The notes below the pieces were generated by a model. It made no database searches and was not told the DNA's origin. It worked only from the letters and a program-made list of their open reading frames with translations. Both the position numbers and the translations under genes were made by a program. From a virus (taxonomy: Duplodnaviria; Heunggongvirae; Uroviricota; Caudoviricetes): a stretch of 7,205 nt of DNA. Shown here piece by piece: positions 6,037 to 7,205 of the stretch (within the stretch, counting starts at the first letter, position 1; every line of letters starts with the position of its first letter). The DNA lies in the IMG/VR virus record IMGVR_UViG_2541047121_000009; one strand, 5' to 3'.

Positions 6037-6539
6037 CTGCGTCGTCGCTCAGGCTTCAGTGATTTACGTAATTCTCGCGCCAGAAAATAGCGTGTCCAGC
6101 TGCGGTTCTTTTCAAGCGTTTCCACCATAAAGTTATTACGTGGAGCCAGCCGCCAGCCGCTGCCACCGGATGCACCACGATGATGACTACGACGACGTTT
6201 TGCTCCTCCCCGGACACCAAAAAACAGAAACGCCGGATAGAAGTCACCAGAGATCATCCGGTTCCCCTTCCCGTTGCGCTGGTTAGGGGCAATGCGTGTC
6301 ATAAAACCGGCTCGCTTTTTACTGGCTCTCGGCACCATGTAACCAATCGAACGAGCCAGGCGTCCGGTCTGATAACCGGGGTTTTCACCCGGTGCCGACC
6401 GCGCACGGCGCATCACCAGCCGACGGGCATCACGCATATGACGCTGCCCAATCGTGACAAACGCCCGCCGGACACGGGCGCGGTTAAAGCGCATCTCGGC
6501 GGGCTGCTGAACATCAACGTGAAAAAAGGGAGTCGCCAT
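6033..6539 (-). CDS. Arg-rich phage virion morphogenesis / tail-completion-like protein, 168 aa
   Basis: Strong SD (GGAGG, 5 nt) before the ATG at 6539. Highly basic, ending in RRRR. Position in the neck gene block of a Mu-like late operon. Family assignment from memory is uncertain. Confidence 0.55.
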   Translation of the reverse strand: MATPFFHVDVQQPAEMRFNRARVRRAFVTIGQRHMRDARRLVMRRARSAPGENPGYQTGRLARSIGYMVPRASKKRAGFMTRIAPNQRNGKGNRMISGDFYPAFLFFGVRGGAKRRRSHHRGASGGSGWRLAPRNNFMVETLEKNRSWTRYFLARELRKSLKPERRRR

Positions 6540-6885
6540 TGCTGCCTCCGTGACTCTGCGTAAATTCGCCCAGTTCCGTACACTCCAGCAGCAGAAAGCG
6601 CCGCGCCCCGTTCAGATCGCGCTGACGTTTCACCCGGTACACACTGTCATCACAGACCACCTCATAATCAGCAGTGATCCCGCGGCGGTAGCGAATGGTG
6701 ATGTAATGGGTGATGGCGTCCCCGGTCTGCGCGGTTTCCTGCCAGGTGGTGGCACTGGTCTGGATAACCTTCGCCCATGCCCGGAACGCAACCGGGTATT
6801 GAGGCTCCACGCCAAAGTTATCCGCGGGCATATCCACCCGCTGGCGGATCAGGACGCGTTTATTCAGTTCGCCGGGGTCCGGCAG
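6514..6885 (-). pseudogene. 3' portion of a Mu-like neck/head-completion gene (gp36-like?), interrupted at its 5' side by the IS insertion
   Basis: The minus-strand frame that ends at 6514 stays open upstream past the track's GTG at 6837, which has no SD, and runs into the IS terminal repeat at 6886. The first stop in that frame lies inside the IS. Confidence 0.5.
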
Positions 6886-7205
6886 TGAACCGCCCCGGAA
6901 ATCCTGGAGACTAAACTCCCTGAGAAAGAGGTAAACAGGATGACTAAAAATACTCGTTTTTCCCCCGAAGTCCGTCAGCGGGCGATTCGTATGGTTCTGG
7001 AAAGTCAGGATGAATATGACTCACAGTGGGCGGCAATTTGTTCCATTGCCCCAAAGATTGGCTGTACGCCGGAGACTCTGCGTGTCTGGGTTCGCCAGCA
7101 TGAGCGGGATACCGGGGGCGGTGATGGTGGGCTCACCAGCGCTGAACGTCAGCGTCTGAAAGAGCTGGAACGTGAAAATCGTGAACTGCGCCGCAGTAAC
7201 GATAT
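6886..7205 (+). mobile_element. Left end of an IS3-family insertion sequence (IS629/IS1203-like), continuing beyond the window
   Basis: Terminal sequence TGAACCGCCCCGGAAATCCTGGAGACTAAACTCCC matches my recollection of the IS629 left inverted repeat, and is followed by AAGAGG and the orfA start. Confidence 0.8.
6940..7205 (+). CDS. IS3-family transposase OrfA (helix-turn-helix / leucine-zipper N-terminal protein), partial, runs off the window
   Basis: Translation is [89 protein letters not shown], near-identical to my recollection of IS629 OrfA. No stop before the window end. Confidence 0.85.

Follow-up and report, generated by a model that had tools for sequence, protein, structure and literature searches.

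IS629 insertions and Type 1 necks

Knock-outs of prophage genes and other genes by IS629 are well documented in the O157 group (PMC3271280, PMC7175801, PMC9397093). For example, stx is interrupted by this element in strain HB6, and lacZ is interrupted in O121:H19, where the insertion is reversible through the IS-excision enhancer IEE (PMC7175801, PMC9397093). IS1203 is regarded as an isoform of IS629, the target duplications of IS629 measure 3–4 bp and 62% of its copies sit in prophages (PMC3271280). The locus described here resembles the stx and lacZ knock-outs in the element involved and in probable silencing by a simple insertion; however, its target is a virion neck gene without a known host phenotype. 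Regarding this target, the genes of Type 1 (SPP1-like) necks follow the order Ad1–Hc1–Ne1–Tc1, and the Hc protein seals the portal channel after packaging and gives the docking platform for the tail (PMC4362835).

The window, that is, the whole stretch of DNA that we analysed, is the entire 7,205-bp draft contig AVRO01000088.1 (assembly GCA_000462385.2, E. coli T234_00). As this contig breaks off 320 nt into the element, the right junction of the IS can be followed only in a second strain. As the proxy genome we used the closed chromosome of strain CV261 (NZ_CP040316.1), which is an stx-negative O157:H7 strain (PMC7175801), and strain FRIK944 served as the source of the uninterrupted reference allele. 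Window positions 63..7205 show a single mismatch with CV261, at nt 69, and positions 70..7205 are identical. Most of the window is present in about 881 of the 5,426 complete E. coli genomes, and the phage/IS junction is present in one of the 5,426, namely CV261. The IS-truncated protein is encoded on three contigs in all (CV261, T234_00 and the draft contig VCAS01000027.1), the last of which is 100% identical to CV261 across 9,985 bp. The shared junction on these three contigs points to a single rare insertion that would have been inherited by descent. In searches of genome and viral contig collections, neither the exact IS junction nor the exact torR/gene N junction at the opposite end of the window gave a match. 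The host prophage is best explained as a thrW-integrated element of the O157:H7 lineage with an HK97-type head and a Mu-like tail; it is also termed P27-like. The features of the window are listed in Table 1.

Table 1. Features of the 7,205-bp window discussed in the text
Feature	Position	Strand	Details
torR fragment	1..76	+	100% identical to torR; joined to gene N via microhomology 63..76
Gene N (DNA circularization protein), with antisense torR in place of its 3' end	33..1154	-	373 aa
Tail terminator (Tc1 position)	5476..6036	-	RefSeq annotation and Pfam PF23840
Ne1 (tail completion / Neck1)	6033..6539	-	phrog_879, E=5.6e-95
Hc1 (Phage_HCP), codons 14-136, without start codon	6514..6885	-	Pfam PF05521
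Left copy of the 3-bp target-site duplication, CAG	6883..6885	.	CTG, Leu14, in gene orientation
IS3-family element IS1203/IS629, first 320 nt	6886..7205	+	Equals nt 1-320 of the 1,310-bp CV261 IS
Left terminal inverted repeat (IRL), TGAACCGCCCCGGAAATCCTGGAGA	6886..6910	+	Pairs with the CV261 right repeat
IS orfA, 5' part, 88 codons visible	6940..7205	+	Pfam HTH_Tnp_1

The interrupted gene and the insertion junction

Judged by its profile matches and its position, the interrupted gene is that of the head-closure protein Hc1. The protein scores 79.4 bits against PF05521 (cut-off 25), and the intact allele, WP_000702395.1 (136 aa), matches the phrog_25 profile, 'head closure Hc1', with E=4.5e-49. 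The Pfam domain spans residues 16–117 of the intact protein and is wholly retained in the window. Members of this family have a beta-rich fold like that of gp16; a sequence search of intact Hc1 against PDB chains returned no matches. [quoted passage not shown] Ne1 is followed by the tail terminator, DUF2635, sheath, tube, chaperone and tape-measure genes and then by gene N. The Hc1 head-closure proteins include SPP1 gp16, lambda gpFII and HK97 gp7. The gene in the window resembles these in its family match and in its module position beside the sheath and tube genes, but this copy lacks codons 1–13 and the start.

Two further observations concern this module. The phrog_25 profile has 286 positions, of which Hc1 aligns to 22–159 and the adjacent Ne1 to 163–284, so the profile itself seems to include fused Hc1–Ne1 proteins. 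Just upstream of the tape-measure gene, two overlapping minus-strand ORFs, 3192..3461 (Phage_TAC_7, 89 aa) and 3037..3225 (62 aa), have a layout that resembles the frameshift pair of a tail-assembly chaperone.

The sequence from 6886 onward is a genuine known element, identified by a 100% match that excludes chance resemblance. The CV261 copy of the IS measures 1,310 bp, over all of which it is 100% identical to many E. coli copies that RefSeq names IS1203; the naming rests on these RefSeq-annotated copies as a proxy for the ISfinder reference. IS3-family elements range from about 1.2 to 1.55 kb, and IS629 itself is 1,310 bp. The ends read 5'-TG...CA-3', the TG start being that of IS3-family ends, and carry imperfect terminal repeats of about 25 bp, the left one in the window and the right one in the CV261 copy. 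The right repeat (positions 11172-11196 of the CV261 locus, L001) is 88% complementary to the left repeat, and the right end has the sequence ...GGGGCGGTTCA. The visible part of orfA matches HTH_Tnp_1 with E=1.2e-12 and 48.4 bits (cut-off 24.1). In CV261, orfA (108 aa) overlaps orfB (296 aa), the product contains rve domains, and RefSeq annotates a transposase of the IS1203 family whose programmed frameshift is accompanied by a pseudoknot. This is the layout of the IS3 family, in which an HTH orfA and an overlapping DDE/rve orfB are joined by a programmed -1 frameshift. A motif search found no A6G slippery heptamer in the IS, and the window gave no Rfam matches at gathering thresholds; the frameshift pseudoknot falls just beyond the window end. 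The element is like IS629/IS1203 (IS3 group) of E. coli O157:H7 and Shigella in its ends, its orfA and orfB domains, its frameshift annotation and its 3-bp duplication. It shows no differences from them in itself, whereas its insertion site is rare. With the IS1203/IS629 identity, the Hc1 profile matches and the gene order, the view of the first-pass annotation that an IS629-like element of the IS3 family cuts a neck gene at the head–tail boundary holds.

To describe the insertion, we compared the interrupted allele with the intact one. The IS is flanked by CAG on both sides in CV261, and the intact allele has one CAG. When the IS and one CAG are removed, CV261 equals FRIK944 with 0 differences over 5 kb. 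Beyond the right end of the IS in CV261, the sequence CAGTATGTAGGTTGCGCTGG... is the 5' stub of Hc1, followed by the Ad1 gene. The insertion point lies inside codon 14 (CTG) of the 136-codon Hc1 gene, and the intact FRIK944 allele begins 39 nt (13 codons) farther upstream than 6885. Because CV261 has the matching duplication and exactly recreates the intact allele, the event is read as a simple insertion: the 1,310-bp IS1203/IS629 transposed into codon 14 of Hc1 and duplicated CAG. In this arrangement the transposase reads away from the phage genes of the window, and the phage late operon enters the IS from its far side. For T234_00 itself, the arrangement at the right end and in the 5' stub is deduced from CV261 and would be the same. 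The first-pass annotation had placed the missing 5' part of the gene beyond the IS, where it is indeed seen in CV261, and the target duplication and the continuation of the same gene, both found in that strain, speak for a simple insertion and not for an IS-mediated deletion. The comparison with an uninterrupted homologous prophage, which it had proposed, gave the same result in FRIK944. Its description of a detached 5' half of the gene needs correction, since the part split off amounts to only 13 codons (39 nt) and the start.

Two other explanations of the junction were considered. In one, the IS of T234_00 was rearranged later, by an IS-mediated adjacent deletion or by recombination between two IS629 copies, and what lay beyond it, the 5' stub with the head genes, moved away. 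The contig ends within the IS with the far side out of view, each O157-type genome offers ample recombination substrate in its 14–27 matching IS places, and the opposite contig end carries an odd join to torR. However, CV261, with its simple insertion and intact duplication, is identical in the left junction and in 7.1 kb of flank, and short-read assemblies are expected to break inside a multicopy IS anyway; a later rearrangement is therefore improbable. In the other, the phage/IS junction is an assembly chimera at the contig end and no insertion took place, an idea encouraged by the chimeric look of the opposite end of the same contig. The closed CV261 chromosome contradicts it with an identical junction, a matching right junction and the duplication, and the junction recurs in the independent draft contig VCAS01000027.1, so that this explanation is effectively refuted. 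The simple insertion is retained below.

Probable consequences for Hc1 expression

The minus-strand frame of the ORF at 6514..6837 stays open through 6885 and meets no stop in the IS before about 7021–7023, and its own stop lies at 6514–6516. Ahead of the GTG at 6837, this frame contains no in-frame ATG, GTG or TTG. The first-pass annotation, in which the left end of the IS at about 6886 abuts an open minus-strand frame without a start, was accurate on both points. In the intact gene, the ATG of Hc1 overlaps the stop codon of Ad1 (ATGA) and has no evident Shine–Dalgarno sequence ahead of it, which suggests that intact Hc1 is translated by stop–start coupling and that the insertion would have destroyed this coupling. 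In CV261 the remaining 5' stub is closed after 14 codons by a TGA in the IS terminus, and codons 14–136 of Hc1 are separated from the ATG by 1.3 kb. The annotation pipeline models the truncated Hc1 as a 123-aa protein, WP_050579203.1, with a CTG start exactly at the IS boundary (6883..6885, minus strand); homology-guided start calling probably produced this start as an artefact.

These features make it most likely that the Hc1 gene is silenced rather than halved, since the start and the coupling are split off while the whole Pfam domain remains. Hc1 would no longer be made, because no canonical start precedes Val30 (GTG) and Met32 (ATG); these two candidate starts fall within the domain, and neither has a ribosome-binding site at a suitable distance. 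The opposite possibility is that a truncated Hc1 is still made, from a non-AUG start at the boundary CTG or, on read-through, from Val30 or Met32, and that the neck works with a mild phenotype. Such a product would keep the whole Pfam domain (16–117) if started at the boundary, as in the 123-aa CTG-start model of the pipeline, and our terminator scan of the phage-sense strand inside the IS found no terminator-like sites, so some read-through is possible. However, no Shine–Dalgarno-like sequence was found ahead of the CTG, the GGTGGAT before ATG-32 sits too close to that start, and a start at 30 or 32 drops the first 15 or so positions of the domain. The ATGA coupling, on which the intact gene appears to depend, is lost, and no sigma-70-like sites turned up when the IS and its flanks were scanned for promoters. 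We consider continued production of a functional truncated Hc1 very improbable.

Two effects of the insertion on the phage can be proposed. First, late transcripts would be attenuated across 1.3 kb of untranslated antisense IS before they reach the Ne1, terminator, sheath and tube genes. Second, without Hc1, filled heads would be neither sealed nor joined to tails, and no infectious particles would form. A simple insertion of IS1203/IS629 in Hc1, which would leave the prophage unable to make infectious particles, is very probably the best explanation of the locus as a whole. The insertion itself is ordinary and nothing new in kind, and RefSeq already annotates it in CV261. It would explain the probable failure of this P27-like prophage to give infectious particles. 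To the known erosion of O157 prophages by IS629 it adds one rare site, which marks the lineage and which T234_00 and CV261 have in common.

The torR join and the state of the prophage

The opposite end of the window shows a second apparent lesion. Gene N encodes 373 aa in the window compared with 442 aa in CV261 and FRIK944. Identity to the phage begins at position 63, with the mismatch at 69, and the overlap between torR and gene N, ACTGGT[A/T]GTACGGG, matches in 13 of 14 positions, including 7 bp of perfect match beside the join. In FRIK944, torR occupies 1,367,124-1,367,816 on the minus strand and gene N occupies 357,253-358,581 on the plus strand. Both parts of the window match the minus strand of that record, which corresponds to a deletion orientation over about 1.0 Mb. 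We rejected a plain deletion joining torR to gene N: the interval of about 1.0 Mb between them contains asnS, fabA and mukB, and the loss of these essential genes together with some 1 Mb is not credible.

The join is instead quite likely a chimeric contig tip. Only 62 nt separate the join from the contig end, although torR is a single-copy gene, and gene N is intact in both other assemblies that carry the same IS insertion. A genuine complex rearrangement is unlikely. If the join were real, a microhomology-mediated rearrangement would have brought together torR and the thrW prophage, which lie about 1 Mb apart, for instance within a duplicated or transposed segment, and the IS-hit prophage would mark a breakpoint of large-scale genome restructuring. 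The proposal that the join is a real T234_00 junction or, as a separate matter, that the IS629 insertion is a reversible, IEE-excisable off-switch for particle production is rated as distinctly unlikely. With a chimeric tip as the preferred reading, the window becomes a cautionary case, in which the apparent lesions of a complete draft contig correspond to one contig break in a repeat and one probable chimeric tip.

These results bear on two further claims of the earlier reading. It had described the tail gene block as damaged at both ends; the IS insertion in Hc1 stands, whereas the truncation of gene N is doubtful, probably belongs to a chimeric tip, and leaves damage at both ends not established. 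It had also called the prophage very likely defective. The truncation of gene N is doubtful as support for this, but a defect is plausible from the Hc1 hit alone and is backed by losses in the proxy strain. The CV261 prophage lacks 1,342 bp comprising the 5' end of terL, terS and an HNH endonuclease gene (L001 16162..16169, compared with 14857..16198 of the FRIK944 locus, L002), and a second IS3-family element lies in its early region. Both the losses and the second IS point independently to prophage decay in the closest relative.

Lastly, in the CV261 locus a strong hairpin that resembles a terminator, with 14 pairs and a T run after them, lies at L001 11563..11611 on the minus strand, between the major capsid and Ad1 genes; a hairpin behind the capsid gene is the usual attenuator.
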